Positions 47-61,000 of a stretch of DNA of 64,000 nt are shown piece by piece. The DNA is from a virus (Duplodnaviria; Heunggongvirae; Uroviricota; Caudoviricetes). Numbering within the stretch: the stretch's first letter is position 1; each line of letters begins with the position of its first letter. The stretch is taken from the IMG/VR virus record IMGVR_UViG_3300012348_000136, positions 1 to 64,000 of that record. The stretch is one strand, 5' to 3'. Position numbers and translations under genes: made by a program. Under the pieces are notes generated by a model. It saw nothing but the letters and a program-made list of their open reading frames with translations, did no database searches and had not been told where the DNA came from.

Positions 47-75
47 TTTACAAGCCGGCATTTTCCGTTTATAAT
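47..75 (+). promoter_or_regulatory. sigma70-like early promoter in a repeated promoter plus 5'UTR cassette
   Basis: -35 TTTACA, 17-nt spacer, TATAAT. Followed by the conserved leader gatctcgtaaggaaaaccaccac and an ATG at 104. AT-rich TTTGTGAAAA repeats lie upstream. Confidence 0.6.
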
Positions 76-103
76 GATCTCGTAAGGAAAACCACCACAG
101 AAT

Positions 104-2580: not shown

Positions 2581-2848
2581 CATAATCATTAGCGAAGGCT
2601 GCACTGCTTTCTACACTGACGTGAACGGAAAGACTGTCGGTGGGAGCTATGAACCAACACGATTGACGGAAGAAGAAGAAAACGAACTTGTTGATTATCT
2701 GCTTGTCAAAGTCAAAGAAGGTATCACAAATAGCACAATTAGTCTTAACGCATTGATTGGTCTTTTTCAATATGATGACTACGAGACTGATGAATATTCG
2801 TGTGAGCAATGCGGAGATTCCGTAAGCCGAACAATTTACAACATATGA
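2567..2848 (+). CDS. hypothetical protein (93 aa), Cys-containing C-terminus
   Basis: Track ORF. Confidence 0.45.
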   Translation: MTKYNIIISEGCTAFYTDVNGKTVGGSYEPTRLTEEEENELVDYLLVKVKEGITNSTISLNALIGLFQYDDYETDEYSCEQCGDSVSRTIYNI

Positions 2849-3240
2849 GCTACAATCTTTTTCTTGATGATGTTCGTAAACCCGACGATGCATGGTTGTA
2901 TGATCAAAAAGTAAAGTTGTGCGAGGCAAGCAACATTCACAACTGGGTGATTGTTCGCGATTATGACCAATTTGTCAAAATGATCCGTGACGGCGGTATT
3001 CCTACTGTCGTTTCATTTGACCATGATCTTCACTTTGAACATATGCGTCATTACTTTGATGTCACGTCCAAATGCGGAGTCGTTGAGTATGGTAATCTCA
3101 AGTATAAGACAGGACTATCATGTGCACAGTACCTAATTGATGCCTGTCGTGAAAAGAACGTGTCTCTTCCACGCTGTTATGTTCATAGTGCAAATGAATG
3201 GGGTCGCGAAAACATCAAGAAACTACTTGGGATTGACTAA
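2845..3240 (+). CDS. hypothetical protein (131 aa)
   Basis: Track ORF 2809..3240 with start moved to the ATG at 2845. Confidence 0.45.
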   Translation: MSYNLFLDDVRKPDDAWLYDQKVKLCEASNIHNWVIVRDYDQFVKMIRDGGIPTVVSFDHDLHFEHMRHYFDVTSKCGVVEYGNLKYKTGLSCAQYLIDACREKNVSLPRCYVHSANEWGRENIKKLLGID

Positions 3241-6781: not shown

Positions 6782-6810
6782 TTTACATTTTCGACAGTTT
6801 GGTTTAAAAT
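6782..6810 (+). promoter_or_regulatory. sigma70-like promoter
   Basis: TTTACA-N17-TAAAAT; ATG at 6817. Confidence 0.5.
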
Positions 6811-6816
6811 ACAAAC

Positions 6817-7350
6817 ATGATTGATCGAGTATTCTGGGACATTGACGAAACGCTAATTCACACTGAGTTTAGCCCGTTTGGAGAAGGCTTTAATGACGTT
6901 CGACTCGTACTCGAAGATCACATATACTATACAAAGATTCGACCGTGCAGCATGCATCTTGTTGAATTTAGTCGTCAACTTGTAGGTTCCGAAAATGTTT
7001 ACATCCTGACGACAGCGACTCGTGATTACGCGCAAGAAGTTAATCGTCTTGCTGGTTGGAACTTTCCACATAGTCATATCTACTCTCGCGAGGACTTAAA
7101 GAAGCACCGTTACTCTACTGCATATGGTGGTTCTGGAACGGCGCAGAATAAAGAAATTGCATCAAGTAATAATGTCTTAATTGACAATTTGCCTCCTCGT
7201 GAGAACTGGGACAAGATGTCTTTCATCGGAATTGATAGTGGACGCTACTTGAAGATCCAAGATTACTACGGCGTAGATTTTCCAGATTGCGCCTTTGTCG
7301 AAGACGTCGAAAAATTCTTACTTAAACTACACAACAATGAACAACACTGA
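6817..7350 (+). CDS. HAD-superfamily phosphatase-like protein
   Basis: N-terminal FWDIDETLIHT matches HAD motif I (DxDxT). Confidence 0.5.
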   Translation: MIDRVFWDIDETLIHTEFSPFGEGFNDVRLVLEDHIYYTKIRPCSMHLVEFSRQLVGSENVYILTTATRDYAQEVNRLAGWNFPHSHIYSREDLKKHRYSTAYGGSGTAQNKEIASSNNVLIDNLPPRENWDKMSFIGIDSGRYLKIQDYYGVDFPDCAFVEDVEKFLLKLHNNEQH

Positions 7351-8591: not shown

Positions 8592-9026
8592 TTGGTAAAG
8601 ATGGATACAAAGCAAGTCATTGTCATGCGCAAAGATCTGAATATGCGCAAGGGCAAAATGTGCGCTCAGGCTAGTCATGCCAGTATGTCATTCTTAACAA
8701 AGAACGGATCTGTCTGTAGAGATTGGCGTGATGAAGATTGGTGCGTCATCGAGTTTTGTTCTAGCACATATGAAATAGAAAAGTATGAAGACGAAATCAA
8801 TCACTGGTTGCAAAATTCTTTTCGTAAGATCACTGTCTATGTCAACAGCCAAGAAGAACTAGAAGTAATTCATCAAAAAGCTCTTGATGCCAAACTAATC
8901 TCTCATTTGATTATTGATAATGGGGCGACCGAATTCAATGGAGTTCCTACAATGACATGCTGCGCAATTGGACCGCATTGGGACTCTAAGTTTGAAGGAA
9001 TTACTAATCACTTACCGCTACTATAA
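8592..9026 (+). CDS. peptidyl-tRNA hydrolase PTH2-family protein
   Basis: KQVIVMRKDLNMRKGKMCAQASHAS matches the PTH2 signature (..V.R.DL.M.KGK..AQ..HA). Confidence 0.55.
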   Translation: MVKMDTKQVIVMRKDLNMRKGKMCAQASHASMSFLTKNGSVCRDWRDEDWCVIEFCSSTYEIEKYEDEINHWLQNSFRKITVYVNSQEELEVIHQKALDAKLISHLIIDNGATEFNGVPTMTCCAIGPHWDSKFEGITNHLPLL

Positions 9027-10173: not shown

Positions 10174-10423
10174 CACAAAAGAAGACTGGGAAGAATTTCA
10201 ATCAGACATTGCAACCGAACTTGTAGATGATTATTTGACAGGTGGTGACGATGATTATCAATTTGTAGATCAGGTTTACCGTAACGGAGATGTGTATGTT
10301 AGTATATCATATGAAAGATGTCGATACCTTGGTACGTTAAGTTACAACTGGATGCATGCAATTCGTGTTTACCCAAAGCAAGTTATACGAACAATTTACG
10401 TAGAAGAAAATGAGCAGGATTAA
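10160..10423 (+). CDS. hypothetical acidic protein (87 aa)
   Basis: Track ORF. Confidence 0.4.
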   Translation: MSFFNTKEDWEEFQSDIATELVDDYLTGGDDDYQFVDQVYRNGDVYVSISYERCRYLGTLSYNWMHAIRVYPKQVIRTIYVEENEQD

Positions 10424-10940
10424 TCTATATGCAGGACCTGGAGCAGGTAAGAGTACAACAGCATCATGGCTATTTGCTGAACTAAAGAAACGTGGTTATA
10501 GCGTTGAACTTGTTAGTGAATATGTAAAGAGTTGGGCAATCGCCAAACGAGACGTGATCGGCTTTGACCAAGTGTACCTAATGGGAAAGCAACTCAATTA
10601 TGAATACCGCTTTCTTGCGCATGGCATACAACATATTGTGACAGACAGTCCAGTGTTGCTGTCTGCATGCTATACTCGATCTTACTTTGACGACCTTAAG
10701 ATTGCAGATCATATGGAAGCAATCATTGCTGAATATGAAGCACGTCATCCAAGCCTAAACATCTTTTTGAATCGTGATGGTAAAGAATACCGAACCGAAG
10801 GCCGTTGGCAAGACGCTGAAGCAGCAAAGAAGATTGACGGTATTGTGAAAGACGCTTTAAATCGCAACGGCTTGCCATACACTGAGTTTTCCTTCTATGA
10901 TAGTGAAGGTATCTTGAAACACGTGATTGAAAATATATGA
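10410..10940 (+). CDS. P-loop NTPase, putative (deoxy)nucleotide or nucleoside kinase
   Basis: Walker A GPGAGKSTTA; about 176 aa. The GK[SD]TTA pattern resembles my recollection of T4 gp1 dNMP kinase. Confidence 0.45.
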   Translation: MSRINLYAGPGAGKSTTASWLFAELKKRGYSVELVSEYVKSWAIAKRDVIGFDQVYLMGKQLNYEYRFLAHGIQHIVTDSPVLLSACYTRSYFDDLKIADHMEAIIAEYEARHPSLNIFLNRDGKEYRTEGRWQDAEAAKKIDGIVKDALNRNGLPYTEFSFYDSEGILKHVIENI

Positions 10941-11395: not shown

Positions 11396-11457
11396 TCCGT
11401 AACTTATTGAAAATCAATCGTTTTGTGAAAAAACGTGAAAATTTATGAAAAAAGTTA

Positions 11458-11486
11458 TTTACATGTGGTCGGTTTCCGTTTATAAT
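11458..11486 (+). promoter_or_regulatory. sigma70-like early promoter in a repeated cassette
   Basis: TTTACA-N17-TATAAT plus the conserved leader gtaaggaaaccaccaca. Confidence 0.6.
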
Positions 11487-11516
11487 GATCTTGTAAGGAA
11501 ACCACCACAATAAATC

Positions 11517-11699
11517 ATGGATAAAAACTCAGAAAACTTTTTCAAAGAATTGGCTGTTTTATTGGAAAAATACGAAGCTAATGTGTGGGTAAGCGGAGAT
11601 GGTGAGGTTGAATTTTGCGTCGGTGAGAAAGTCATTGACCGTGAATTCTTCTCATTTGGAGCTATGGAAATCCGCGAATTCCTTGAAGAGAATCAGTAA
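11517..11699 (+). CDS. hypothetical protein (60 aa)
   Basis: Track ORF after the cassette. Confidence 0.45.
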   Translation: MDKNSENFFKELAVLLEKYEANVWVSGDGEVEFCVGEKVIDREFFSFGAMEIREFLEENQ

Positions 11700-12774: not shown

Positions 12775-13725
12775 ATGAATAAACAACGCCTACATCTAAA
12801 TTGGGTCACGTCGACTCATCAAACCTACTTCGTTTCTTTGGACGGAGATTACTGTCCAATTGCGAAAACCGAAAATCTACTTCGTATTCCTTTGAAAGAG
12901 AATACATTCCCAGGCGGAGAAGTTCACCTTCGTCTTGACATCAATGAAGATCAAGTAGCTGACAACGCGCATCTTATTATTGCTGCGCGATACAACACCG
13001 CCGCCGACATCCTTAAGATTGTTCTTGCAGCTGATGCTGCACGCCGTCTTGGATTTTCTAAGACCACGCTTATTCTTCCATACTTCCCCGCGGCGCGTCA
13101 AGATCGTGTCTGTAATGTTGGCGAGCCTCTTACCGTCAAGATCTTTGCTGATATGATTAACGGATGCGGCTTTCATGCGGTTCATATTCTCAGCCCGCAC
13201 AGCGAAGTCACTCCGGCATTGCTGAATAATGTCGTGGTTCATGACGAATGCGGTTTGGTTGAGCGTGCACTGTGTAGGTGGATTACACAAACAAATTTGA
13301 CGACCATCAATATCGTTTGTCCCGATGCTGGCGCAGGCAAGCGTGTTGGTAAGGTTGCATCTTACCTTGCAAAGCGCTTTCCGCAAAACGGTGTCAATCT
13401 TATCCGTTGTGAAAAAGTCCGCGATGTGCGCGACGGCTCGCTTAAGGAGTTCTTTGTCCAAGCCGATGATCTTGGCGGATATCCAACGCTTATCATCGAT
13501 GACATTGTTGCATATGGTGGTACTTTCCTTGGTCTTGCTGACAAGTTGCGTGAACGTAACTGTGGTGAGCTTGGTATCTTCATCTCGCATGCTGACTGTG
13601 AAGAAGGCTTGATGAACCTGCGCCAAAAATTCAATTATGTTGTCACAACTGACTCTAAACGCGATTATGCGGGTTTCGCTTTGGATAATGACAAAACCGT
13701 TGATATCCTACCTTTTAAAATCTAA
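12775..13725 (+). CDS. PRPP-synthetase-family pyrophosphokinase (Prs-like)
   Basis: PRPP-binding loop LIIDDIVAYGGTF; about 316 aa; divergent N-terminus. Confidence 0.6.
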   Translation: MNKQRLHLNWVTSTHQTYFVSLDGDYCPIAKTENLLRIPLKENTFPGGEVHLRLDINEDQVADNAHLIIAARYNTAADILKIVLAADAARRLGFSKTTLILPYFPAARQDRVCNVGEPLTVKIFADMINGCGFHAVHILSPHSEVTPALLNNVVVHDECGLVERALCRWITQTNLTTINIVCPDAGAGKRVGKVASYLAKRFPQNGVNLIRCEKVRDVRDGSLKEFFVQADDLGGYPTLIIDDIVAYGGTFLGLADKLRERNCGELGIFISHADCEEGLMNLRQKFNYVVTTDSKRDYAGFALDNDKTVDILPFKI

Positions 13726-15521: not shown

Positions 15522-15557
15522 GAGGTGGGGCGGCTACGGTCTCCCCACCTCTTTTTT
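15522..15557 (+). terminator. rho-independent terminator
   Basis: GAGGTGGGG/CCCCACCTC stem followed by TTTTTT. Confidence 0.7.
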
Positions 15558-15591
15558 GTGAAAAAAATATGAAAATTTGTGAATTTTTTTA

Positions 15592-15620
15592 TTTACAAGC
15601 TGACATTTTCCGTTTATAAT
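15592..15620 (+). promoter_or_regulatory. sigma70-like early promoter in a repeated cassette
   Basis: TTTACA-N17-TATAAT plus the conserved leader. Confidence 0.6.
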
Positions 15621-15645
15621 GATTCTGTAAGGAAACCACCACATT

Positions 15646-16104
15646 ATGAAATTCAAACTTTGGGACAACAAAAATCGCGAGTACATCAACAACCGTCACG
15701 CCGCAATTGACTGCGAAGGTTTTCTGTTTGACGTAAGCAACGATGATCCGATCGAGGCTGAAGTTCTTTATTCGACAGGAGTGACCGACTGTGACGGAAC
15801 CGAACTGTATGTCGGTGATGTGGTTGAAGCAATGAGATCTTCTGCTCGAGTTATGAATGGCGAATTGTTCATGGTCATTTTTAATGAAAAGCTGCGTTGC
15901 TTTGGACTAGTGCGAATTGACGGTCGGTCTGTCGAAAATTACATGGACCTTTTTGCAAGTGACGGCCGCAAAATCCCAGCGCTTAGCCGAGTGATGCCAA
16001 GCGTCGCCGTTCAAGTCACCACCTCAAAGAAGAAGGCTTTCCGCAAGAAAGGTGACATCAGCACTAACATGACTGCACAAATTCTTTTCTGCGGAGAAAA
16101 ATAA
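15646..16104 (+). CDS. YopX-like phage protein, paralogue
   Basis: N-terminus MKFKLWDNKNREY. Confidence 0.5.
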   Translation: MKFKLWDNKNREYINNRHAAIDCEGFLFDVSNDDPIEAEVLYSTGVTDCDGTELYVGDVVEAMRSSARVMNGELFMVIFNEKLRCFGLVRIDGRSVENYMDLFASDGRKIPALSRVMPSVAVQVTTSKKKAFRKKGDISTNMTAQILFCGEK

Positions 16105-16871: not shown

Positions 16872-18458
16872 ATGAAACCGAATAATGTCATTACTCTTGC
16901 ACCGCTCAATGTTGACGGTTACAAGGTCGATCACCGCCGTCAATATCCGTCCAACTCCGCGCTTGTCTTCAGCAATCTGACAGCTCGCGGCACTCGCATT
17001 AACAGCCTTGATAAGATCATTTTCTTTGGTCTGCAGTACTTCATGGACGAGTATCTGATCAAGGACTGGAACAACAACTTCTTCAATCTCCCACTTGATG
17101 AAGTCACTGAGCAATATGGATACGATCTGCTTGGTTACCTTGGCGTGAACAACATCGGTGATCAGCACATCCGCGACCTCCACGCTCTTGGCCATCTGCC
17201 GCTTGAGATTTGGGCGCTGCCTGAAGGCTCGAATGTCGACCTTCGCGTTCCGATGTTCGTCGTGTGGAATACCGACGCTCGCTTCTACTGGCTGACAAAT
17301 GCTATTGAGACCATTCTCAGTACTACAATGTGGATGCCGTGTACCAGCGCTACAACCGCGCTGATGTACCGCCGTATTCTTCAGCGCTATGCTGATGAGA
17401 CGAATCCGGAGATGGGTGAATTTGTCCAATGGCAAGGTCACGACTTCTCTTTCCGCGGTCACTCTTCGCGTGAATCTGCTTGCACTAGCGGCGGCGGTCA
17501 CCTCCTGTCTTTCACTGGAACTGATACACTGCCGGCAATTAGCTTTCTTGAGAAGCACTATGATTGCAGCCGCCGTACTCAGCTTGTTGGTGGTTCGGTT
17601 GCGGCTACTGAACACAGTGTTATGTGCATGGGTGGTATGGAAGATGAAGTTGAAACCTTCAAGCGCCTCATCACTGAGATCTATCCGTCCGGTATTGTGT
17701 CTATTGTGTCCGATACTTGGGACTTCTGGAATGTTGTTAATCCAAACGGTGGCATTGCAGCTCAACTCAAAGATCTAATCATGGCTCGTGATGGTAAGGT
17801 TGTCATTCGTCCTGACAGTGGTGATCCAGTTAAGATTGTGACTGGCTACACCGAAGATGAAATCATTTGTGAAGATGGTAAGATTTACGAAAAGCAATTT
17901 AAAGCTCTAGCGAATGCATTTCCATCGAAAGGCAAGGAACTCACCGAGCTTGAAGTCAAGGGTATGATTCAGTGCCTTTGGGAAATCTTCGGTGGTACCG
18001 AAACGTCCACTGGTTACAAGCAGCTTGACCGCCACATCGGTGCAATCTACGGCGACAGTATTACGCTTGAACGTGCCGAGCAAATCTGCGCACGCCTCAA
18101 GGCTAAAGGCTTTGCTTCGACCAACCTTGTGTATGGTATCGGATCTTACACTTACCAATATGTTACTCGCGATACGCATATGTTTGCGGTTAAGAGCACC
18201 TACGGCGAAGTCTTCGATGCTGAAGGTAATCGTGTTGGAATTGAGATCTTCAAGGATCCCAAGACTGACAGCGGAATTAAGAAATCCGCAAAAGGCTTGA
18301 CTGCCGTTTATCGTACCGCCGATGGTTTTGAACTGAAGGACCAAGCAACTTGGGACGATGTTAAGAACTGCGCGTTCGTTCAGGTCTTCAAAGATGGCAA
18401 CGTTGTGAAGCGCTGGACTCTGAACGAGGTTCGTGGCGAGGTTGCCAAGAGCTTCTAA
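16872..18458 (+). CDS. nadV: nicotinamide phosphoribosyltransferase-family enzyme (NadV/NAMPT-like)
   Basis: 528 aa; overall NAMPT-like features as recalled from T4-like phage KVP40 NadV. The antisense ORF 16854..17765 is regarded as spurious. Confidence 0.6.
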   Translation: MKPNNVITLAPLNVDGYKVDHRRQYPSNSALVFSNLTARGTRINSLDKIIFFGLQYFMDEYLIKDWNNNFFNLPLDEVTEQYGYDLLGYLGVNNIGDQHIRDLHALGHLPLEIWALPEGSNVDLRVPMFVVWNTDARFYWLTNAIETILSTTMWMPCTSATTALMYRRILQRYADETNPEMGEFVQWQGHDFSFRGHSSRESACTSGGGHLLSFTGTDTLPAISFLEKHYDCSRRTQLVGGSVAATEHSVMCMGGMEDEVETFKRLITEIYPSGIVSIVSDTWDFWNVVNPNGGIAAQLKDLIMARDGKVVIRPDSGDPVKIVTGYTEDEIICEDGKIYEKQFKALANAFPSKGKELTELEVKGMIQCLWEIFGGTETSTGYKQLDRHIGAIYGDSITLERAEQICARLKAKGFASTNLVYGIGSYTYQYVTRDTHMFAVKSTYGEVFDAEGNRVGIEIFKDPKTDSGIKKSAKGLTAVYRTADGFELKDQATWDDVKNCAFVQVFKDGNVVKRWTLNEVRGEVAKSF

Positions 18459-19338: not shown

Positions 19339-19854
19339 ATGAAAACGAACACTACTGTATACACTCCCCCTAGATACTCTAAGAGATACTCTAAGAGAGA
19401 CAGCTCCGCTCCTTCAGTCTTCCTAGCAGGAAGTATTGAAATGGGTAACGCTGAAGATTGGCAAACAAAAGCTATTGATTATTTTAGGCGCGTTATTCCG
19501 ATTGGAAACTCTATCGACTTCTATAATCCTCGGCGTCCTGATTGGGATTCTAGTTGGGTTCAAGATCTAAACAGTCCCAACTTCTATGAGCAGGTATCTT
19601 GGGAACTTGATCATTTGCTTGCAGCTGACTTCATTTATATGTACTTTGATCCATCTACTCAAAGTCCCATTTCTCTCCTTGAGCTTGGCATGTTTGCAAA
19701 TAGCGGCAAGATGGTTGTATGCTGTCCCAATGGATTCTATCGTAAAGGAAACGTCGATATCGTTTGCCAAAAGATGCAGGTACCACTCTTTACTAACTTT
19801 GAGGCAAGCCTAATTGCGCTAAGAAACAGAATTGGAGAATACGCTGAATGGTGA
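19339..19854 (+). CDS. nucleoside 2-deoxyribosyltransferase-family protein
   Basis: VFLAGSIE ... LLELGMFANSGK pattern of the Nuc_deoxyrib_tr fold. Confidence 0.5.
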   Translation: MKTNTTVYTPPRYSKRYSKRDSSAPSVFLAGSIEMGNAEDWQTKAIDYFRRVIPIGNSIDFYNPRRPDWDSSWVQDLNSPNFYEQVSWELDHLLAADFIYMYFDPSTQSPISLLELGMFANSGKMVVCCPNGFYRKGNVDIVCQKMQVPLFTNFEASLIALRNRIGEYAEW

Positions 19855-20369: not shown

Positions 20370-20900
20370 ATGAAAACTCTACAAACACCTGAAGAATATG
20401 GATACGTCCAGCATGGAAACATTGTCCTCTTTCAGAAAGGACCGCTTAGCCAATGGTATGGTGGCTTTAAAGATCAGGATAGTTGTTTCTATGATCAATA
20501 TAGCGGCTATCATTTTAATTGTTGTGAACAATGGATGATGGCTCAAAAGGCGTTTCTTTTTAGTGATTTGGATACAGCCGACCTTATTATTGCAGAGAGA
20601 CATCCAGGAACCCAAAAGGACCTCGGTCGACGTGTTAAGAACTTTGATCCTACGCTTTGGGACGCCGTGAAAGAAGACATCGTGTTTCTTGGAAACTATT
20701 ATAAGTTTACTAAGTGCAATCATTTACGTGACTTTTTGTTTTCGTATGATGTTAATACAATCTTTGCTGAGGCTGCTCCATGGGATCCAATCTGGGGAAT
20801 CGGACTTGGGCCAAATGATCCGGATGCAGCCGATCCTTCAAAGTGGCGTGGTCAAAATCTGCTTGGTAAAGCAATCAGTCGCGTTCGTAAATTACTCTAA
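20370..20900 (+). CDS. NADAR-domain (YbiA-like, DUF1768) protein
   Basis: FYDQYSGYHFNCCEQWMMAQKAFLF ... DPIWGIGLG ... WRGQNLLGKAI match NADAR family motifs. Confidence 0.6.
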   Translation: MKTLQTPEEYGYVQHGNIVLFQKGPLSQWYGGFKDQDSCFYDQYSGYHFNCCEQWMMAQKAFLFSDLDTADLIIAERHPGTQKDLGRRVKNFDPTLWDAVKEDIVFLGNYYKFTKCNHLRDFLFSYDVNTIFAEAAPWDPIWGIGLGPNDPDAADPSKWRGQNLLGKAISRVRKLL

Positions 20901-22456: not shown

Positions 22457-22869
22457 TGAAAACATTACTTATTCTGATGTTCGCGACACTCTCTGTGTCG
22501 TGTTCACAATTTGCACATTCAAGTGAAAAGACAAAGACTGCACCTGTTGTCGTTGCAGTTGAGCATGGCAAGGCGTCTTGGTATAGCATAAAGACAAATC
22601 GTGGTACTAAGACCGCAAGCGGTAAAAGATTGGCTAACCATGAATTGACTGCAGCACATAAAACTCTTCCTATGGGTTCGGTTGTTAAGGTTACAAATAA
22701 GAGCAACGGAAAATCTGAAGTTGTGACGATTACTGACCGCGGACCTTACATTAAAGGAAGAATCATCGATGTTACGATCGGTACCGCGGAAAAGCTCGGA
22801 TTTGTGAAGTCTGGGACCGCTCCTGTGAAAATTGAGGTGCTTCGGCACGGAAAAATGAAAAAAAATTAA
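22456..22869 (+). CDS. RlpA-like (double-psi beta-barrel) lipoprotein
   Basis: Signal peptide plus lipobox LSVSC; KASWYS ... AAHKTLPMGSVVKVTN ... VVTITDRGPY resembles the RlpA/DPBB domain. Confidence 0.5.
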   Translation: MKTLLILMFATLSVSCSQFAHSSEKTKTAPVVVAVEHGKASWYSIKTNRGTKTASGKRLANHELTAAHKTLPMGSVVKVTNKSNGKSEVVTITDRGPYIKGRIIDVTIGTAEKLGFVKSGTAPVKIEVLRHGKMKKN

Positions 22870-22897
22870 AAATTTTCACATTTTGTGAATTTTCTTG

Positions 22898-22926
22898 TTT
22901 ACATTGGTCGGTTTTCCGTTTATAAT
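22898..22926 (+). promoter_or_regulatory. sigma70-like early promoter in a repeated cassette
   Basis: TTTACA-N17-TATAAT plus the conserved leader; a TTCACATTTTGTGAA inverted repeat lies upstream. Confidence 0.6.
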
Positions 22927-22948
22927 GATCCTGTAAGGAAACCACCAC

Positions 22949-23215
22949 ATGTCCGACAACATTCCAACCTTAGATCTCGCCGACATTATTTCAAAGTGCG
23001 GCCTATCGCAAAACACTCGGATCTGCTCAACAACGGTTGACCCACAAGTACTTGACGAAATCTTTGAATGCGCGAGTTTCCGCTTGAAACGGAAAGGTCG
23101 CAAAACCATAAAGTTCGATTTTTTATACACCGTGGATAATGAAATCGTTTACGGTAATGACGATGCTGATGAATATATGTCGATCGCTATTCATTCTAAA
23201 TCAAAGAGGAAATGA
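22949..23215 (+). CDS. hypothetical protein (88 aa)
   Basis: Track ORF. Confidence 0.45.
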   Translation: MSDNIPTLDLADIISKCGLSQNTRICSTTVDPQVLDEIFECASFRLKRKGRKTIKFDFLYTVDNEIVYGNDDADEYMSIAIHSKSKRK

Positions 23216-23239
23216 AACTCGGTTGAAAGGAAACCACCA

Positions 23240-23545
23240 ATGCAACACGCAACTTACCGCAAACATAATGATAGGTCGCTTAATTCAAGCACCTACCATA
23301 AAAAGGACGGCACGGCCATTCGTGCAATTCTCAAAGAAGAACTTCACGCGGAAGCAGGCGAAGACTCGATTCTTGCAAACGTCTACGAAAGCTATGAACG
23401 AAACGGCGATGGGTTCGTAATGTTCAACACCGAAGAAGCGGCGCAAAACCACTCATTCTTTGAAGTCGCGTATGTTGTTAAAACTCAAGTGTTCCTGTCG
23501 CCTCAAGGATATGCCGAACTGATGCAAGGTAAACCGATCTTTTGA
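23240..23545 (+). CDS. hypothetical protein (101 aa)
   Basis: Track ORF preceded by a partial leader copy (aaggaaaccaccaATG). Confidence 0.45.
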   Translation: MQHATYRKHNDRSLNSSTYHKKDGTAIRAILKEELHAEAGEDSILANVYESYERNGDGFVMFNTEEAAQNHSFFEVAYVVKTQVFLSPQGYAELMQGKPIF

Positions 23546-24837: not shown

Positions 24838-24946
24838 AATCTAAGGAAGATTCTGCATTATGCGGCGGAATATCCGTCAGGTTCACCGAAAATGCCGAAA
24901 TTCTTGCTTTGTGGAGAAAATTTGTGAAAATTTATGAATTTTCTTG

Positions 24947-24975
24947 TTTACATCCAAGCATTTTCCGTTTATAAT
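24947..24975 (+). promoter_or_regulatory. sigma70-like early promoter in a repeated cassette
   Basis: TTTACA-N17-TATAAT plus the conserved leader. Confidence 0.6.
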
Positions 24976-25002
24976 GATTCTGTAAGGAAACCACCGCAAA
25001 AT

Positions 25003-25419
25003 ATGATCAAAGTTACCAATTGCCGAGCTAGAGGCGGCCGCGAAAAACGAATCAATGGCGCTCGCGCGTATGTTAATTCATCGGTCGGAAAGGTCGTTGA
25101 CAAATTCTTCGACGACAACAAAATCTATGCTCTCAATTTCACTTGCAGCACGTGGAATGCATTGAAGCGGAAGGCAGTCGAGTCCGACATTGCCGATTTG
25201 AAGACGATTTTTGGCGAAGACGCTGAAATCCGCTGGTCAAAAACCGCCGGTTGCTCATGCGGATGCTCTCCAGGATATGTCGTTGACGGACAAATGAAGT
25301 CCGAATTCCGCAATAAGAATGTCTGGATCGACATCGAGTCTTCCACCGATCATCTTGTGAAACTCCTCCCGGACTTCACCAAGAAACTGGCGGCTGAAAT
25401 TGCCAAGAAAAATTCTTGA
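25003..25419 (+). CDS. hypothetical protein
   Basis: Track ORF 24934..25419 trimmed to the ATG following the cassette leader. Confidence 0.45.
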   Translation: MIKVTNCRARGGREKRINGARAYVNSSVGKVVDKFFDDNKIYALNFTCSTWNALKRKAVESDIADLKTIFGEDAEIRWSKTAGCSCGCSPGYVVDGQMKSEFRNKNVWIDIESSTDHLVKLLPDFTKKLAAEIAKKNS

Positions 25420-25428: not shown

Positions 25429-25457
25429 TTTACAAGCAGCCAAAAACCTGTTAGAAT
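25429..25457 (+). promoter_or_regulatory. sigma70-like promoter
   Basis: TTTACA-N17-TAGAAT. Confidence 0.45.
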
Positions 25458-25497
25458 AATTCTGTAAGGAAACTAAAACCTCAAACTACACTACATT

Positions 25498-25932
25498 ATG
25501 TCACTAGCCCGAATGAATGAAATGCTGGAAGATATGAACTCCCAGCCGTCCGCAGCCGAAGGATTCTCCGCCGCCCACTTTTACAAGATGGGCCAAAAAT
25601 ACGGACTGACCTGCAGCGAAATCATGGTGAACTTCCTTGGCAAGGCGCGTGCGCTTTCCCGTGGCAAGTATCCCGCCGTCGCTCCCGATGCGCCGCTTGA
25701 AACGAGCCGCAAGCCGAAAGCGGTCGCTCCCAAGCCGCTGAAGGCTGCCGCTAAAAAGGCGCCTAAGAAGGCTGCTGCGGAAAAACCCGCTAAGGCGCCC
25801 AAGAAGACCAAGCCAAGCATTGCCGATGAAATCAATGCTGAGCTTGACGCTGAAGATCTCGACGAGGTCGAGGAAACTGGCACGGTGTTTGAATACATCG
25901 CGACTCCTGAGGAAATCGCTGAAGAAGGCTGA
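25498..25932 (+). CDS. histone-H1-like basic protein with AKKAPKKAA repeats
   Basis: Ala/Lys/Pro repeat block and acidic C-terminus; locally GC-rich. Confidence 0.5.
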   Translation: MSLARMNEMLEDMNSQPSAAEGFSAAHFYKMGQKYGLTCSEIMVNFLGKARALSRGKYPAVAPDAPLETSRKPKAVAPKPLKAAAKKAPKKAAAEKPAKAPKKTKPSIADEINAELDAEDLDEVEETGTVFEYIATPEEIAEEG

Positions 25933-26272: not shown

Positions 26273-26301
26273 TTTACATTCTTGCAACAATAAATTATAT
26301 T
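26273..26301 (+). promoter_or_regulatory. sigma70-like promoter
   Basis: TTTACA-N17-TATATT. Confidence 0.5.
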
Positions 26302-26307
26302 AGACAT

Positions 26308-26640
26308 ATGAATATTCCAATCCTCAATCGCCTTCGCGAAATGTTTAAAGCCGAGCGTCCAGAACGCTATGAAAACGATGCACTTGCATCACTTATGTTT
26401 ATCTTCGTTAAAGAAGGAAACGGATATGATGATCAGGACTTAGGCATTGCAGTACATGACATCATTGAAGAATGTCAAACGTACATTTATCGCGATCGTC
26501 CTCTTCAAGTTAACGCTATGATTGAGGCTGAAATAAACGGAGAATATGATGAAGCCGATTACATCGCGAAAAGTATTTACGAACAAGATACAATCGTCAT
26601 GTGCAACCTAGTTAAAATCAGAGAATACATTTACGCATGA
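26308..26640 (+). CDS. hypothetical protein (110 aa)
   Basis: Track ORF. Confidence 0.45.
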   Translation: MNIPILNRLREMFKAERPERYENDALASLMFIFVKEGNGYDDQDLGIAVHDIIEECQTYIYRDRPLQVNAMIEAEINGEYDEADYIAKSIYEQDTIVMCNLVKIREYIYA

Positions 26641-27348: not shown

Positions 27349-27377
27349 TTTACAATTTGTGCACGGCCTGATATAAT
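27349..27377 (+). promoter_or_regulatory. sigma70-like promoter
   Basis: TTTACA-N17-TATAAT. Confidence 0.55.
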
Positions 27378-27383
27378 ATCTTT

Positions 27384-27848
27384 ATGATACGGAATGAGAT
27401 TCCTGCGCTACTAGCCAAACCCACTAGGAAATTTCCAGAGCTGGTTGCGCATTTTATCCCTGCACCTGATTACACAAACGAACCAAACAAAATAGACTAT
27501 ACCCGAATGGAAGAAAAAGAAAGCATTAAAATTCTTGACGAATGTAAAGCACTTCAAATCAAGAAGTCAAACGATTACCAAAATCCCCACTCACGTATTC
27601 GTCAAGCAGATTATTATCCTCGCGGCGTTGCTACAATTCTTGACATCATTCAAGCAAAAGTGCTGCGAATGTATTCGGTAATTGAGGCTATGGAAAACGA
27701 TCCAAGCTATGTTCCGAACTTTGAAAGCTTTGAGGATAGCTGTAAAGATCTTATTAACTATGCTTCATTTGCAGCTGCATATTCACGTGGCAAGGTCGAT
27801 GGTCAGTCTCCTTCCAAAGACTTCCTAAATCGCAATGTGAACGCATGA
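27384..27848 (+). CDS. hypothetical protein (154 aa)
   Basis: Track ORF. Could be an NTP-pyrophosphatase-type nucleotide-metabolism protein; I could not assign it. Confidence 0.4.
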   Translation: MIRNEIPALLAKPTRKFPELVAHFIPAPDYTNEPNKIDYTRMEEKESIKILDECKALQIKKSNDYQNPHSRIRQADYYPRGVATILDIIQAKVLRMYSVIEAMENDPSYVPNFESFEDSCKDLINYASFAAAYSRGKVDGQSPSKDFLNRNVNA

Positions 27849-28721: not shown

Positions 28722-29771
28722 ATGGCACAACATATCACAACACTTGTCGTTGACTATGACGACACAATAGCAATTACTTTTAATCGTGATTGGCAGAATG
28801 CTAAACCAAATCAGCCGCTGATTAATAAACTAAATCAGCTGTATGATCAAGGATGGACCATTCACATTGTAACTGCACGCGGTCAGCTTTCATGTGATGG
28901 TGACTATCAAAAAGCAGATGATAAGTATCGTAAGCAAATTGAAAAGTGGTTGAGCGATCATAATGTAAAGTATCATACGCTAAGTTTCCAAAAGAAGCTG
29001 GCAGCATATTACATTGATGATAAAGGAATAACTCCTGAGCAGTTTGTTGAAAAATTTGATCGGGTTGATCTACAAAACGGTTGGTCAGGTGCTTCAGTTT
29101 ATTATGATGCAGTTACTGATTGCGTTTATAAGACCGCGTCAAACGGTCATGAAGCAATTCAGTGGTATGAGCATGCAACCGCATTAGGTTACAATACACC
29201 ACATGTCCACAACATCATCGGCAACACTATTCGTATGAGTAGGCTGCCTGCTTACACTGGAAGTGTATGTGATGCGGTTGATAGTATCATATCATTCGGC
29301 AAACATCCAGCATTGCGCGGAAATAAAGACGCTCTTGCATATGTTGAACGCTGTACCGCGCGCGTAAAGAACATGTTGCCAACCGATACTTTAAAAAGTA
29401 TTGTTAACTTTCTACAGGTTGCAATGCAGTCTACACCATTCACATTTGGGCACGGTGATTGTTCATCGTTGAACATTATGGGAGCTGCGGCTGACTCATG
29501 TGTTCCTGCATTCATTGATCCAATCAACGATTCTACATTGTATAGCAGCTATGTCATTGACCTTGGAAAATATTATGCAAGCATTGACATCTTTAAACAA
29601 GAACCATCTATTAAAGACGAAATCCTTAATGCTGTAGATAGCGTAAGTAGCTGGACAATCAAAGCGCATGCACTTGGACATCTTTGCCGTTGCTTGCCAT
29701 ATGCACCCACTGAGGCAGACAAACTGCATATAACTACTCTTATCGAAAAACAAACATATGCTCTTAGATAA
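28722..29771 (+). CDS. bifunctional HAD-like phosphatase / APH-type sugar kinase candidate
   Basis: N-terminus VVDYDDTIA (HAD motif I) and IVTAR. C-terminal HGDCSSLNI (HGDxxxxN kinase motif) and FIDPIND. Confidence 0.45.
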   Translation: MAQHITTLVVDYDDTIAITFNRDWQNAKPNQPLINKLNQLYDQGWTIHIVTARGQLSCDGDYQKADDKYRKQIEKWLSDHNVKYHTLSFQKKLAAYYIDDKGITPEQFVEKFDRVDLQNGWSGASVYYDAVTDCVYKTASNGHEAIQWYEHATALGYNTPHVHNIIGNTIRMSRLPAYTGSVCDAVDSIISFGKHPALRGNKDALAYVERCTARVKNMLPTDTLKSIVNFLQVAMQSTPFTFGHGDCSSLNIMGAAADSCVPAFIDPINDSTLYSSYVIDLGKYYASIDIFKQEPSIKDEILNAVDSVSSWTIKAHALGHLCRCLPYAPTEADKLHITTLIEKQTYALR

Positions 29772-30207
29772 AAAAGAACTAGCCGCTAGACTTGGAAAAG
29801 ATATCAACGACGTAAAGATTGGTCTTACCGCGTCCACATTTGACTTGTTTCATGCAGGCCATAATGTAATGCTGATGGAAGCAAAACAACTTTGTGACTA
29901 TCTCATTGTTGGCTTGCTGGTAGACCCAACAAAAGATCGCCCAGACACAAAGAACAAGCCAGTCCAAAGTGTGTTTGAGCGTTACATCCAAATTTCAAGC
30001 TGCAAGTACATTGATGAAATCATTCCGTTTGAAACCGAAAACGATTTGGTCGATATGATCCTAACTATCAATCCTGACATTCGTATTGTTGGGGAAGAAT
30101 ACAAAGGTACTGACCATACTGGAGTTGGTCTTTGCCCAATTCATTATAATAAGCGTCGCCACTCGTTCTCTACAAGTGAGCTACGCACACGAATTCAAAA
30201 TCAATAA
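29758..30207 (+). CDS. cytidylyltransferase-like nucleotidyltransferase (TagD/HldE-adenylyltransferase type)
   Basis: TASTFDLFHAGH HxGH nucleotidyltransferase motif; 149 aa. Confidence 0.55.
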   Translation: MLLDKKELAARLGKDINDVKIGLTASTFDLFHAGHNVMLMEAKQLCDYLIVGLLVDPTKDRPDTKNKPVQSVFERYIQISSCKYIDEIIPFETENDLVDMILTINPDIRIVGEEYKGTDHTGVGLCPIHYNKRRHSFSTSELRTRIQNQ

Positions 30208-44409: not shown

Positions 44410-45648
44410 ATGAAGAAACTTTCACAAATTGAATCAGAAGCCATTGCGATATATGAAAATATGGAAATGGCACTCGGAGGTAACTCAAATGAAATTGTCC
44501 CTCCAATCACACCAGCGACGGTTGACCGTGTTGGTTCTGCGCTAGAGAAGTTAGATCAAATTGGCGAAATGGCAAATGATCTATACAATACAATTTCTCA
44601 TCTTGAAGAAATTGATGCAGAGACTGATGCTGCTCTAACAGGTGCATACAATTCTATTGACGACCTATACACGAAGATTGATGACAAGTATGACGTCATT
44701 CCAGTTGAACTCGATGAATATGACATTGAGGAAGAACTTGAACTTTCAGCCGACATTGAAATCATTGCTGAAAAGCTATCAGCTGATGCAGATGCATCTG
44801 AATGGATCGATGATTTTGTCAATAGCGATGCTCCACAGTTTAAAGGTAAGTCCAAGAAGGAACGTATCAAGATGGCTCTAGGCGCATACTATGGTGCACA
44901 AAAGAACGAAGAAGTTGATCTTGAAGAAGCAGCTGCATCTGACACTAAATGGCGAGTAGCATTCTCATATGCTGATCCATCTGGATCTGGTGTTGCTAAT
45001 GCTAGAATCGTTATTAAAGCAAACGATTCCGAAACTGCAAAACGATATGCAGAAACAAGTCTTAAAAGAAAAGGCAATTACAAAGATTTCAAAATTAAGT
45101 CTGCTTCGAAGATGAATGAAGAAGTTGAGCTTGAAGAAGCGCTGTTACCAAGTCACAATTGGAGTCCTGGTCATGATATGGTACCTGCGCCAATTGGTAA
45201 AGATACTATAACTGCAAAAGGAACGACCAAAGACATTCAAAAACTTTGGGGTATCAAAATGCGCGCAGGAAAGTGGGCTGATACCTTCGTTGGCATGTAT
45301 AAAGATGGAACGCTTGGAATTTTTAACAATGATGGCGAATGGAAATATAAAAATGTAGCCGATTTTGAAAAAGCCTTTGCTAAATTCCGTAAGACAGGCG
45401 ATCTTGACGAGAATGTTGACCTTGAAGAAAGTGTTAACCTTCCAAAAATCAAAGAGCTTGTATCACTTGCTCTAATTGATGAAAAAGATGTACCTGCTAC
45501 AATTGCTGCATTAAAAGCAACTCAATCTGATAAGACATTAACTCCAGCGCAAACCAAACTACTTGGTAACCTTGCTGTTATGTTGACCAACGTTATCCTT
45601 GGAGATACAAGTGCATTGTCCAGCGTTAAGCGCGCATCTAAGGAATAA
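44410..45648 (+). CDS. acidic repeat protein, possibly a processed internal-protein precursor
   Basis: Repeated EEVDLEEA, EEVELEEA and ENVDLEES (LxE-type sites). Confidence 0.45.
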   Translation: MKKLSQIESEAIAIYENMEMALGGNSNEIVPPITPATVDRVGSALEKLDQIGEMANDLYNTISHLEEIDAETDAALTGAYNSIDDLYTKIDDKYDVIPVELDEYDIEEELELSADIEIIAEKLSADADASEWIDDFVNSDAPQFKGKSKKERIKMALGAYYGAQKNEEVDLEEAAASDTKWRVAFSYADPSGSGVANARIVIKANDSETAKRYAETSLKRKGNYKDFKIKSASKMNEEVELEEALLPSHNWSPGHDMVPAPIGKDTITAKGTTKDIQKLWGIKMRAGKWADTFVGMYKDGTLGIFNNDGEWKYKNVADFEKAFAKFRKTGDLDENVDLEESVNLPKIKELVSLALIDEKDVPATIAALKATQSDKTLTPAQTKLLGNLAVMLTNVILGDTSALSSVKRASKE

Positions 45649-45838
45649 CTCTAATCCACCTTTGCCTAACCTAAGGATTATTTTATGATCCCTTCGGGAA
45701 CCTTCGGTCAATCTAGTTTCTTCTGGATTGGCCGTTTGTTTATATGCAGCCATCAAACGGTTGCTGCGGAATGAATACTTAATTATTATAACATGGTCTG
45801 CGAGAATGTAAATAACAAAATTCACAATATATACAATT

Positions 45839-53670: not shown

Positions 53671-54105
53671 ATGAGTCCATGGACATATCAGAACAACGCA
53701 TTTACAAAGGAAGACGCTGAACTAAAAATCGAGGAAGGCTGTATCGGATTCGTCTATGAAATTACAGACGTCTCAAACGGCAAAAAGTACATCGGCAAAA
53801 AGCTGCTAGTCACAAAAAGAAAACGTCCACCGCTTAAAGGTCAAAAGAGAAAGCGCATTGACATTATTCAAAGTGATTGGGAAAAGTATTGTGGCAGCAG
53901 CGAAACAGTTAAGCTATTAGTTAAAGATCGTCCTGATGATTTCCGTCGTGAAATACTTGAGTTCTGTAAAGCAAAAGGCGAACTATCTTACATTGAAGCA
54001 AAGTGGCAATTTGCAAAAGAAGTACTTCTAAAAGAAGAGTACTACAATGAGTTCGTGGGCTGCAGAATACACGCTAAACATGTGAAAAATCTTTGGAAAA
54101 AGTAA
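53671..54105 (+). CDS. hypothetical protein (144 aa)
   Basis: Track ORF. Confidence 0.45.
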   Translation: MSPWTYQNNAFTKEDAELKIEEGCIGFVYEITDVSNGKKYIGKKLLVTKRKRPPLKGQKRKRIDIIQSDWEKYCGSSETVKLLVKDRPDDFRREILEFCKAKGELSYIEAKWQFAKEVLLKEEYYNEFVGCRIHAKHVKNLWKK

Positions 54106-57605: not shown

Positions 57606-57691
57606 CCTAAAAATCACAAATTTTCACAAAAATCCGTAACTTATTGATTTTCAATGGGCAAGATTTTTTGTGAAAATTTGTGAAAAAAGTT

Positions 57692-57720
57692 ATTTACAAG
57701 CGGTCGTTTTCCGTTTATAA
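57692..57720 (+). promoter_or_regulatory. sigma70-like early promoter in a repeated cassette
   Basis: TTTACA-N17-TATAAT plus the conserved leader. Confidence 0.6.
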
Positions 57721-57745
57721 TGATCTCGTAAGGAAACCACCGCAA

Positions 57746-57920
57746 CATGAAAAAGAAATTTACTGTAACTGTCGCTGATGAAAAAACCGCAATTCGCGTG
57801 TGTAAACTTTTGAGAGGCATTTATCCCGATATTTCTAGGGAAGGTAAGGTTGTCGGTACATCGGCCGCTGGAACTTCTCAGAAAGGCTTAGAGGAATGGG
57901 TGAAGGAAGCAATCGCATAA
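57746..57920 (+). CDS. small protein (58 aa if read through an A8 run; 22 aa otherwise)
   Basis: ATG after the cassette. The frame hits a stop at 57814 unless one A of the A8 run (57780-57787) is skipped, in which case the ORF ends exactly at the TAA at 57918-57920. Confidence 0.3.
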
Positions 57921-57927
57921 AATTTTA

Positions 57928-57956
57928 TTTACATGTGCTAAGTTTCCGTTTATAAT
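57928..57956 (+). promoter_or_regulatory. sigma70-like early promoter in a repeated cassette
   Basis: TTTACA-N17-TATAAT plus the conserved leader. Confidence 0.6.
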
Positions 57957-57982
57957 GATCTCGTAAGGAAAACCACCGCAAC

Positions 57983-58171
57983 ATGAAACCGCCAAAAAAT
58001 TACGCATTGCGAAGCGGCGCCTACCAAGGGCTGCTACTGAGTCTTGAACATGACGTCGATATTCACCGGCTTCTTGATTATGACAAAGTGAAGCATGCGA
58101 CCTTTGTCTCAATTCTCCAAGCCTTGACAAAGAAGGCTGAAGAAATCTGCGAAAATTTCGAATCTCAATAA
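57983..58171 (+). CDS. hypothetical protein (62 aa)
   Basis: Track ORF. Confidence 0.45.
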   Translation: MKPPKNYALRSGAYQGLLLSLEHDVDIHRLLDYDKVKHATFVSILQALTKKAEEICENFESQ

Positions 58172-58185: not shown

Positions 58186-58551
58186 ATGCAAACCAATCTT
58201 GACATCACCACGCTCGTTTACCAAGAAGTTCTCAAAGTCAAAAATGACCTCGGCGGTCATGAAACGATTGCTGACCTTCGCCGTCAAGCACGTGCTGAAA
58301 ACAAAAAGCAACGCGCCAAAGCAGTACTTGATTCGTCATACAATCCGGTCTTTGTGCGAGTTGTAACCTTCGGCCGTCTTGGCAAGAACAACCCAAATTC
58401 ATGGATTTACAAGCAACGTAACAGCGGCTTCCGCAACGGATATCAACGCATTGATACCCAACATGCAGCTGAACTTGCTGTTTACATCAACCCTATGAAT
58501 AAGACTAAGTGGGGTTATCATCAAACCTCTAAATTCAATTTCGTCAAATGA
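58186..58551 (+). CDS. hypothetical protein (121 aa)
   Basis: Track ORF. Confidence 0.45.
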   Translation: MQTNLDITTLVYQEVLKVKNDLGGHETIADLRRQARAENKKQRAKAVLDSSYNPVFVRVVTFGRLGKNNPNSWIYKQRNSGFRNGYQRIDTQHAAELAVYINPMNKTKWGYHQTSKFNFVK

Positions 58552-59141
58552 TTCCAGTACCTCCAACACGTAAGACCACGCTGGTTCTTACTGCAGCTTT
58601 TCAGCCGTGTGGATTTTTCTCTGCACGCAGCGCAATCCGAAACCTTATGGTCGGGGGCGTAAAGGCATATGATACACATGGAAATATTCATGATTGGAAA
58701 AGCTGGATTGCGAATGACAACATTCTTGATCCGGATCATCCTTCACTGCGTAGCGTTAGTGCCGATTGGGCAATTCCAACAATTGTTGTGATTCCTGGTT
58801 ACTTCGGTAATCACAAGCGTCGGGGTAAGCGTCGCAATCGTACTGTCAACCTGCGTCAGCTGTATCATGTTTATGATGGTCAATGCCAATACTGCCTGAA
58901 GAAGATTCCGTATACACATGCGACACGGGACCACCTTCTTCCGCGCAGTAAGGGCGGTGGCAATCATGACGACAACATTGTCTTGAGCTGTAAGAAGTGT
59001 AACACCAAGAAGTCTAACCACTTCCCATACTTCAACGTTCATGGCAGCGAAGTCAAGCCAAAGATTCTGTCTGACATTGACTTTACAGCATTGTCCGAAA
59101 AGGTTCAGCGTCGTCCAGAATGGGAAATTTTCCTTGGATAA
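58548..59141 (+). CDS. HNH endonuclease
   Basis: CQYC ... DHLLPRSKGGGNHDDNIVLSCKKCNTKKSN; N-terminus TLVLTAAFQP ... like standalone HNH proteins. Confidence 0.55.
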   Translation: MIPVPPTRKTTLVLTAAFQPCGFFSARSAIRNLMVGGVKAYDTHGNIHDWKSWIANDNILDPDHPSLRSVSADWAIPTIVVIPGYFGNHKRRGKRRNRTVNLRQLYHVYDGQCQYCLKKIPYTHATRDHLLPRSKGGGNHDDNIVLSCKKCNTKKSNHFPYFNVHGSEVKPKILSDIDFTALSEKVQRRPEWEIFLG

Positions 59142-60156: not shown

Positions 60157-60273
60157 CCAACAAATTGAAAAAAGATATTTACAGAAGCACATTTTTGAGT
60201 TAGAATATATTCACGATCGGCAACGGTAAACAAACCAAAGCCGATCCGATCTCAAAAAGATTGAAAAAAGTTA

Positions 60274-60740: not shown

Positions 60741-60743
60741 TAA

Positions 60744-60818: not shown

Positions 60819-60827
60819 TTTCATAAC

Positions 60828-60902: not shown

Positions 60903-60911
60903 CTTTAAATT

Positions 60912-60988: not shown

Positions 60989-61000
60989 ATTTCAAAATAA

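Follow-up and report, generated by a model that had tools for sequence, protein, structure and literature searches.

Promoter-early stem-loops (PeSLs) have been described for the T4-type phages RB49/phi1, PST/T4 and nt-1/KVP40 (Arbiol et al. 2010, PMC2839356; Comeau et al. 2014, PMC4122927). A PeSL is about 100 bp long and comprises an AT-rich region, a sigma-70-like promoter and a stem-loop, with a Shine-Dalgarno (SD) sequence and an ATG at the 3' end; PeSLs are located in hyperplastic regions, before ORFans and near indels (PMC2839356, PMC4122927). The PeSL promoter consensus of T4/PST is TTTACW-N17-TAYWAT (PMC4122927), and PeSL crossovers were mapped between the -10 hexamer and the SD sequence or ATG (PMC2839356). 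We analysed a repeated promoter-plus-leader cassette in 64 kb of the virus record IMGVR_UViG_3300012348_000136 (Caudoviricetes), a stretch that represents a part of the genome and is called the window in the following. We conclude, with a probability of about 0.78, that the cassettes are portable early-expression units of the PeSL type in an uncultivated T4-like phage. They are a known sort of phage regulatory cassette and not a new one.

Like PeSLs, the window cassettes are repeated intergenic units with an AT-rich region, a sigma-70-like -35/N17/-10 promoter, an SD-like sequence and a downstream ATG, and their -35/-10 consensus equals that of T4/PST. These putative early promoter repeats are found in small-gene, ORFan-rich and hyperplastic locations immediately 5' of ORFans, with tandem copies around single ORFans, and crossovers between related genomes fall inside the cassette, between the -10 and the ATG. 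Between the SD-like sequence and the ATG at the 3' end the distance varies, and in many copies it is long. In contrast to PeSLs, a stable stem-loop or terminator is not a regular part of the window cassettes, the 10-17 bases at the start of their predicted transcripts hardly vary and keep a fixed register to +1, even from one clade to the other, and the phage is from a lineage close to the cyanomyophages and has no SD sites at its other genes. For PeSLs, activity as promoters and terminators and the formation of mini-circles have been demonstrated; for the window cassettes, promoter activity is predicted from the sequence. The main departure from the known PeSLs is the conservation of the first transcribed bases, linked to +1, in an SD-poor and leaderless-rich genome.

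Copies in the window and their anatomy

The window was searched with the pattern TATAATGATYYYGTAAGGAAA, allowing ≤3 mismatches, and 100 dinucleotide-preserving shuffles of the window served as control. Eight matches were found, all on the + strand, and none in the 100 shuffles, which bears out a preliminary description of this DNA that had listed at least seven near-identical cassettes. The copies have the general form TTTACA-N17-TATAAT-N6-GTAAGGAAA(A)C... and share the same order of elements: phased A/T repeats, near-consensus -35 and -10 hexamers with a 17-bp spacer, a conserved block, an A/C-rich leader and the ATG. The -35 hexamers (TTTACA) start at 47, 11458, 15592, 22898, 24947, 25429, 57693 and 57928, each 23 nt 5' of its own -10 hexamer (70, 11481, 15615, 22921, 24970, 25452, 57716 and 57951). 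Six of the previously listed starts (47, 11458, 15592, 22898, 24947 and 57928) were accurate, but the one given as 57692 is at 57693. A leader-only copy is present at 23225, and the supposed partial copy at 25452 is a complete, divergent cassette.

The copies are listed below; L-numbered loci are metagenomic relatives from IMG/VR, which form two clades, A and B.

1-106, + strand: cassette 1; UP-like repeats TTTGTGAAAA/TTTATGAAAA at 21-40, -35 at 47-52, -10 at 70-75, predicted +1 G at 82, leader 82-103; its 5' end is cut by the window edge.
104-289, + strand: gene of cassette 1, ATG at 104, a 61-aa ORFan; cassette and gene form an orthologous pair in L002/L007.
11399-11519, + strand: cassette 2, long form; box GTAACTTATTGAAAATCAA at 11399-11417, UP repeats at 11422-11451, -35 at 11458-11463, -10 at 11481-11486, predicted +1 G at 11493, leader 11493-11516, ATG at 11517 of a 60-aa ORFan.
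15525-15648, + strand: cassette 3; in front a terminator-like hairpin (GTGGGG-N12-CCCCAC) plus T-run at 15525-15556, UP repeats at 15555-15585, -35 at 15592-15597, -10 at 15615-15620, predicted +1 G at 15627, ATG at 15646 of a 152-aa gene.
22868-22951, + strand: cassette 4; TTTGTGAATT at 22882 within the UP region, -35 at 22898-22903, -10 at 22921-22926, predicted +1 G at 22933, ATG at 22949 of an 88-aa ORFan.
23225-23242, + strand: leader copy with no promoter upstream; GAAAGGAAACCACCA, then ATG at 23240 of a 101-aa open reading frame (ORF), the second gene behind cassette 4; the spacer between AAGGA and the ATG is 8 nt, and the copy may be a 'half' cassette.
24908-25005, + strand: cassette 5; UP repeats at 24921-24940, -35 at 24947-24952, -10 at 24970-24975, predicted +1 G at 24982, ATG at 25003, 138 aa.
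25429-25500, + strand: cassette 6, divergent (3 mismatches to the pattern); -35 at 25429-25434, -10 TAGAAT at 25452-25457, AATTCT as discriminator, GTAAGGAAAC at 25464-25473 and 24 nt rich in A and C up to the ATG at 25498 of a 144-aa gene; gene and cassette together have orthologs in the clade-B loci L015, L071 and L087.
57636-57749, + strand: cassette 7, long form; box GTAACTTATTGATTTTCAA at 57636-57654, UP repeats at 57667-57686, -35 at 57693-57698, -10 at 57716-57721, predicted +1 G at 57728, ATG at 57747 of a 57-aa ORFan.
57924-57985, + strand: cassette 8, in tandem, 235 bp past cassette 7 and directly 3' of the stop codon of the 57-aa ORF; -35 at 57928-57933, -10 at 57951-57956, predicted +1 G at 57963, ATG at 57983; its gene (62 aa) has 38% identity to a cassette-driven gene of L004/L013.

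The conserved block GTAAGGAAAC begins at the 7th base past the -10, the predicted +1. Between the two, the window copies have the discriminator GAT(C/T)(C/T)(C/T). It reads GATTCT in two copies, so that GATC is not fixed at this place as had been claimed, and a GATC/Dam site, which we considered as a candidate signal, was rejected since GATTCT and AATTCT variants occur. The gap between CCACCRCA and the ATG had been given as 2-6 nt and measured -1 to 7 nt. The AT-rich direct repeats reported upstream were confirmed: TTTRTGAAWW occurs 13 times in the window compared to 4.1 expected, and 11 of these repeats lie just 5' of cassette -35 hexamers with a spacing of 10 or 20/21 bp. These phased repeats make up the AT-rich upstream region, and the information content of this UP segment is 0.74-1.0 bits. 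All sites that match the sigma-70 consensus at 11 of 12 positions between 10 and 28 kb are on the + (coding) strand. Promoters with the same -35/-10 hexamers and no leader are present at all eight positions where they had been suggested (3250, 6782, 16108, 19864, 26273, 27349, 54106 and 60274).

The preliminary description had also compared the cassettes to PeSLs as mobile cassettes. The sigma-70-type promoter anatomy, the small ORFans and the T4-like phage agree with this view, but stem-loops are present in a minority of the copies. The GC-rich hairpin with T-run of cassette 3 is the sole one among the eight window copies, a TTGA-N3-TCAA box (a 5-bp, weak hairpin) is present in two of the eight (11399 and 57636), and no stem-loop was found at the remaining window copies. 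Across both clades, about a third of the cassettes (about 12 of 36) have the box GTAACTYRTTGA-N3-TCAAY, a small hairpin or palindrome, about 50 nt 5' of the -35; besides window 11399-11417 and 57636-57654, it was seen in L002, L005, L006, L013, L041, L071, L087 and L104. This box could be a counterpart of the PeSL stem-loop or a protein-binding site. An inverted repeat TTTCC-N19-GGAAA around the -10 was considered as operator or PeSL stem. As cassettes of clade B and of the L004/L013 type lack it although their leader is retained, it is not required and was rejected.

Predicted transcription start and leader

The window and its relatives contain 63 distinct promoters with a perfect TTTACA-N17-TATAAT sequence, 31 with the leader and 32 without it. 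Among the 32 leader-lacking promoters, an ATG follows 5-8 nt past the -10 in 15 cases and exactly 6 nt past it in 8. The distance of exactly 6 nt was observed in the window at 6782-6819, 26273-26310 and 27349-27386, and also in L005, L007, L008, L032, L071 and L104. An ATG so near to the -10 suggests that these mRNAs are leaderless and puts +1 at base 7 past the -10, which in the cassettes is the G of GTAAGG with pyrimidines before it. The predicted early promoters are of two classes, either leaderless or with a GTAAGG-type leader.

Intergenic TAAGGAAAC was found in the same register in every case, 6 nt past the -10. The ATG follows the +1 G at a distance of 14-34 nt, and the spacer between AAGGA and ATG measures 7-27 nt, compared to about 5-13 nt for a classical SD sequence. 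One orthologous family keeps the motif at 34 nt (window 25498), 33 nt (L015), 26 nt (L071) or 16 nt (L087) from the ATG. Since the register of GTAAGGAAAC to the -10 is fixed and its distance to the ATG varies, the block is tied to the RNA start and not to the geometry of the start codon. GTAAGGAAAC does not behave like the identical translation initiation region that had been proposed.

The predicted RNA begins with 5'-GUAAGGAAAC. Pairing of UAAGGA with the 3' end of the 16S rRNA (anti-SD) was calculated at -5.3 to -6.1 kcal/mol. Only 5% of 102 other genes reach -5 kcal/mol, compared to 15% of random positions, and the upstream regions of the ordinary genes of the window contain 41% A and 13% G. 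This depletion of SD sequences points to a mode of translation, of the host or of the phage, that does not rely on SD pairing. According to structure prediction the first 20 nt of the leader are 61-78% unpaired, which is no different from shuffled leaders. GTAAGGAAAC could have its role in promoter escape, in 5'-proximal ribosome loading, as a regulatory tag, or in a mix of these.

The early promoters of T4 are used by the host sigma-70 and have an extended consensus with an A-rich UP-like region (review: Miller et al. 2003). The window cassettes resemble them as predicted very strong host-type promoters that are conserved beyond the hexamers, have A/T tracts upstream and precede small, putatively non-essential and immediate-early genes, but differ by a conservation that runs into the transcript, from +1 to +17. 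In T4, Alt and ADP-ribosylation are linked to the UP-like elements. The early promoters of phage T5 reportedly have homology in the initial transcribed region (Gentz & Bujard 1985; Kammerer et al. 1986). The likeness to the cassettes consists in a common sequence 3' of +1, which would affect late steps of initiation and promoter escape; however, the sequence and the phage family are different, and the window block has in addition the SD-like UAAGGA. T4 RegB cuts GGAG in the SD sites of early genes, and RegA acts on a translational operator at early ribosome-binding sites. Here the likeness is restricted to the way of working: an early-gene-specific motif in the region of the ribosome-binding site could permit a coordinated post-transcriptional shut-off. 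The window motif is not GGAG, however.

Relatives, probable gene exchange and alternative explanations

We found 36 distinct cassette instances in IMG/VR, which belong to the two related clades. As a loose scan for TATAAT-N6-GTAAGGAAA in IMG/VR mostly hit unrelated phages, only loci with TTTACA and the clade-specific upstream region were kept. Clade A has TTTGTGAAAA-type repeats and TTTCCGTT at the end of the spacer, while clade B has upstream repeats containing ATGCAT and the AATTCT discriminator. Both clades have GTAAGG(A/C)AA(A)C, with CAC(C/T)(A/G)CA next to it in most cases, and A7C variants (GTAAGGCAA) occur. For 35 instances we determined the information content of segments outside the search pattern: 1.28 bits for the discriminator, 0.94 for the 3' half of the spacer, 0.79 for +11 to +17 and 0.74 for the UP segment, as against 0.38 bits for the 5' half of the spacer and 0.24 bits for +18 to +30. 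Functional positions are kept while filler varies, which argues for selection rather than for recent copying alone. Among the isolated phages in INPHARED the cassette had no meaningful match (best E = 0.07).

The genes behind 34 of the instances belong to 24 unrelated families and mostly encode 27-152 aa; the eight cassette genes of the window gave no or weak PHROG/Pfam matches. The clade-B locus L104 (minus strand of the locus, reverse-complement position 11595) has NAMPT, a protein of 531 aa, behind a cassette-like promoter with the degenerate leader GTAAGGAATTAC..., and the cassettes are consequently not confined to tiny ORFans. The NAMPT gene of the window (16872-18458) has no cassette.

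Recombination junctions at the cassette edges, which were to be looked for in related genomes, were seen. L013 and L006 have 92-98% aa identity upstream of a common cassette, part right after GTAAGGAAAC, and have unrelated genes downstream. L015 and L032 share an identical cassette of 84 nt including the variable spacer, their immediate flanks differ (for the L032 copy the upstream comparison covers about 150 nt), and the downstream genes are unrelated. The ortholog of the L032 gene in L071 has a different cassette, which suggests conversion between loci. The 9-nt variable spacer of the window cassette at 22898 is identical to that of the L001/L014 cassette, and the genes on both sides are unrelated. 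The L002/L007 cassette is closer to the window cassette at 11458 than to its positional ortholog at 47. The tandem cassettes at 57693 and 57928 around one 57-aa ORF agree at every position between the -10 and the end of ATGAAA but for one extra A, and differ in their spacers; L013/L004 have a single cassette at the place that matches the pair. Identical variable spacers between unrelated flanks and the break right after GTAAGGAAAC argue for recombination at the cassettes, and by these comparisons related phages appear to swap genes there.

The reading as portable early-expression units of the PeSL type builds on the anatomy of the cassettes, their non-random repetition, the position-specific conservation, the linkage to +1, the diversity of the downstream genes and the recombination junctions. 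In the mechanism that we propose, 10-bp-phased A/T repeats, as UP-element-like or curved DNA, would recruit the host sigma-70/sigma-A RNA polymerase right after infection. The polymerase would read the TTTACA -35, the 17-bp spacer with its T-rich conserved 3' half and the consensus TATAAT, and would begin transcription at the G 7 nt past the -10. The RNA would start purine-rich, with UAAGGA able to pair with the 16S rRNA 3' end, and would then continue as an unstructured sequence with little G (CCACCRCA...) until the small ORFan begins with its ATG. Selection would keep every functional position at one optimum; homologous recombination and gene conversion between copies would homogenise the cassettes and would allow insertion, loss or exchange of genes at them.

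Several points weigh against this reading. Promoter activity and use, early timing, the exact +1 and a function of the first 10 transcribed bases are predictions from the DNA sequence. The stem-loop that gives PeSLs their name is missing from most copies. The near-invariance of GTAAGGAAAC across two clades exceeds what a generic purine-rich initial transcribed region needs, and in many copies GTAAGGAAAC is farther from the ATG than a classical SD sequence would be. The junctions are few and all from metagenomic contigs, and selection for keeping the promoter could bias which viable breakpoints are seen. Orthologous cassettes were also not better conserved than the adjoining genes, as we had considered: between the window cassette at 47 and L007, identity was 83% at the nucleotide level for the cassette and 84% for the gene.

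The near-invariant leader could instead be a recognition tag. The RNA 5' end, or the same bases as DNA, would be bound or cut by a trans-acting factor, so that one immediate-early regulon is switched on and off together. The factor might be a phage protein that, like RegA/RegB of T4, represses translation or cleaves RNA, or else a protein that shuts off transcription; special ribosome loading at the 5' end is a further candidate. The fixation of the motif to +1, its maintenance in orthologs with the ATG 26-34 nt away, its conservation in two clades whose upstream promoter halves differ, the avoidance of SD-like sequences elsewhere in the genome and the division of the early promoters into leaderless ones and ones with a GTAAGG-type leader all fit this idea, which is compatible with a promoter function. 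On the other hand, no RegA-, RegB-, MotA- or AsiA-like Pfam match was obtained in the scanned ORFs (nearly all of 1-28 kb and ten selected further on, from a part of the genome), there was no RNA structure signal and no Rfam family, the single antisense-like candidate RNA was not significantly complementary, and A7C variants are tolerated. A purine-rich initial transcribed sequence with an SD sequence is the simpler reading, and we regard the tag as rather unlikely. Equally tentative is a broader speculation, in which most mRNAs of the phage lineage would be leaderless or SD-free, and the conserved 5' end would be a dedicated tag, on which ribosomes land or which is gripped by an RNA-binding protein or nuclease of the phage or the host. 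The mRNAs with this tag would form an immediate-early regulon, translated and later silenced as a block, whatever the distance to the ATG.

Independent maintenance of optimal promoters and ribosome-binding sites, with likeness by convergence or purifying selection and no role of recombination, would suit a spacer whose 5' half varies from one window copy to another and also from ortholog to ortholog (47 and L002 have 1 of 9 positions in common), as well as the several pairs of cassette and gene that have stayed together as orthologs in different genomes and clades. We consider it improbable, since it does not account for identical 9-nt spacers and 84-nt cassettes between unrelated flanks, for an L002 cassette nearer to window 11458 than to its positional ortholog, for the L013/L006 homology break exactly at the cassette edge or for the identical 3' halves of the neighbours at 57693 and 57928. 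It is very improbable that the cassettes are autonomous small mobile elements, MITE-like or targets or passengers of a homing endonuclease or site-specific recombinase, with a secondary likeness to promoters. The upstream box in about a third of the instances and the GIY-YIG and HNH endonuclease genes of the window would suit such elements, but all copies are oriented with the genes and end just before the ATG, terminal inverted repeats and target-site duplications were not seen, no copies occur in 185,579 bacterial and archaeal species genomes or in any isolated phage in INPHARED, and the conservation tracks promoter positions. An origin from host promoters was likewise rejected: the 24 matches in these species genomes are at about chance level, and all are without the -35 and CCACC. 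Finally, the conserved sequence of the 5' untranslated region might indicate a structured cis-regulatory RNA such as a riboswitch, attenuator or thermosensor. This explanation is disfavoured and hardly credible, as the leader has merely 14-34 nt, its pairing does not differ from shuffled leaders, the Rfam scan of the window gave only tRNAs above the gathering thresholds, and unrelated downstream coding sequences offer no conserved pairing partner.

Under the preferred reading, PeSL-type cassettes, known before from T4-like phages of coliphage, Yersinia and Vibrio groups, would extend to an uncultivated lineage near the cyanomyophages, and the metagenomic comparisons are independent evidence for gene exchange at such cassettes. 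The consensus gives a precise, testable description of early promoters and their starts in a phage group without a cultured member. It could be used for annotation, for predicting immediate-early genes (host-takeover or anti-defence) and as a strong, compact expression module. An SD-like leader coupled to +1, in a genome that otherwise avoids SD sequences and apparently uses leaderless mRNAs, is a small but concrete handle on how the first proteins get made.

Genome context and neighbouring genes

All genes of the window are on the + strand. PHROG/Pfam matches include a DnaB/gp41-type helicase, RNR, NAMPT, PRPP synthase, NADAR, lysozyme and virion proteins. Among isolated phages, T4-like cyanomyophages come closest, at the protein level only (58-62% aa identity for the helicase and, to S-RIM phages, about 45% for a virion protein); the window had no close nucleotide-level relative in INPHARED. 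The proteins of the window trace to a JGI metagenome contig of 95.7 kb and to run ERR3489834. T4-type late boxes (ATAAATA) occur 13 times on the + strand and twice on the - strand, and at 9 of the 13 the following gene has its ATG just 4-7 nt further on (36801, 38792, 44398, 53093, 53658, 59151, 59951, 62949 and 63474). With boxes so near to the ATG, late mRNAs would be leaderless or nearly so. Replication genes, virion genes and predicted late promoters place the window in a T4-type phage context.

All eight cassettes are located in small-gene regions, at 1-26 kb or 57.6-58 kb, with a median ORF of about 100 aa. The region from 27.4 to 57.6 kb has no cassette, a median ORF of 250 aa and late boxes. 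If cassettes and leader-less promoters are counted as one group, there are 11 strong early-type promoters in 1-27.3 kb, 2 in 27.3-57.6 kb and 4 past this region.

Likely homing endonucleases are encoded by a SegE-like GIY-YIG gene (53671-54105) and an HNH gene (58548-59141); the latter, which is conserved in L004/L013, lies just 3' of the tandem cassettes. The early region has unusual accessory genes for a small protein whose N-terminus has a methylation motif like that of type IV pilins (564-824), for cREC_REC, a cyclic-phosphate processing receiver domain protein (2809-3240), and for PTH2, a peptidyl-tRNA hydrolase (8592-9026). A set for NAD/ADP-ribose metabolism and nucleotide salvage comprises an AAA_28 protein (10410-10940), PRPP synthase (12775-13725), NAMPT (16872-18458), a nucleoside 2-deoxyribosyltransferase-like protein (19339-19854), NADAR (20370-20900) and a cytidylyltransferase-like protein, possibly NMNAT (29758-30207).

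The only clear minus-strand unit of the window, at 45640-45812, has TTTACA-N16-TATAAT followed by about 140 nt without an ORF and may be a phage small RNA. Its conserved blocks (e.g., ACCGAAGGTTCCCGAAGGGATCAT and AAAGGTGGATTAGAGT) are 77% identical to L014:1740-1990, where they are on the gene strand, and the unit gave no Rfam match. We considered that it acts as an anti-leader RNA, as it contains GGUGG...UUCCUUA complementary to the leader (-13.2 kcal/mol). This value is equalled by 7% of random 170-nt windows, so that the complementarity is not significant, and the candidate was rejected.

Two leader-less promoters, at 60178 and 60274, stand in front of a tRNA array (region 60178-63466). The array at 60.6-63.5 kb has 16-18 genes, 16 found by ARAGORN and two added by Rfam (61849-61920 and 63213-63284). 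Its tRNA-Pro gene at 61001-61099 is unusually long, with 99 nt.

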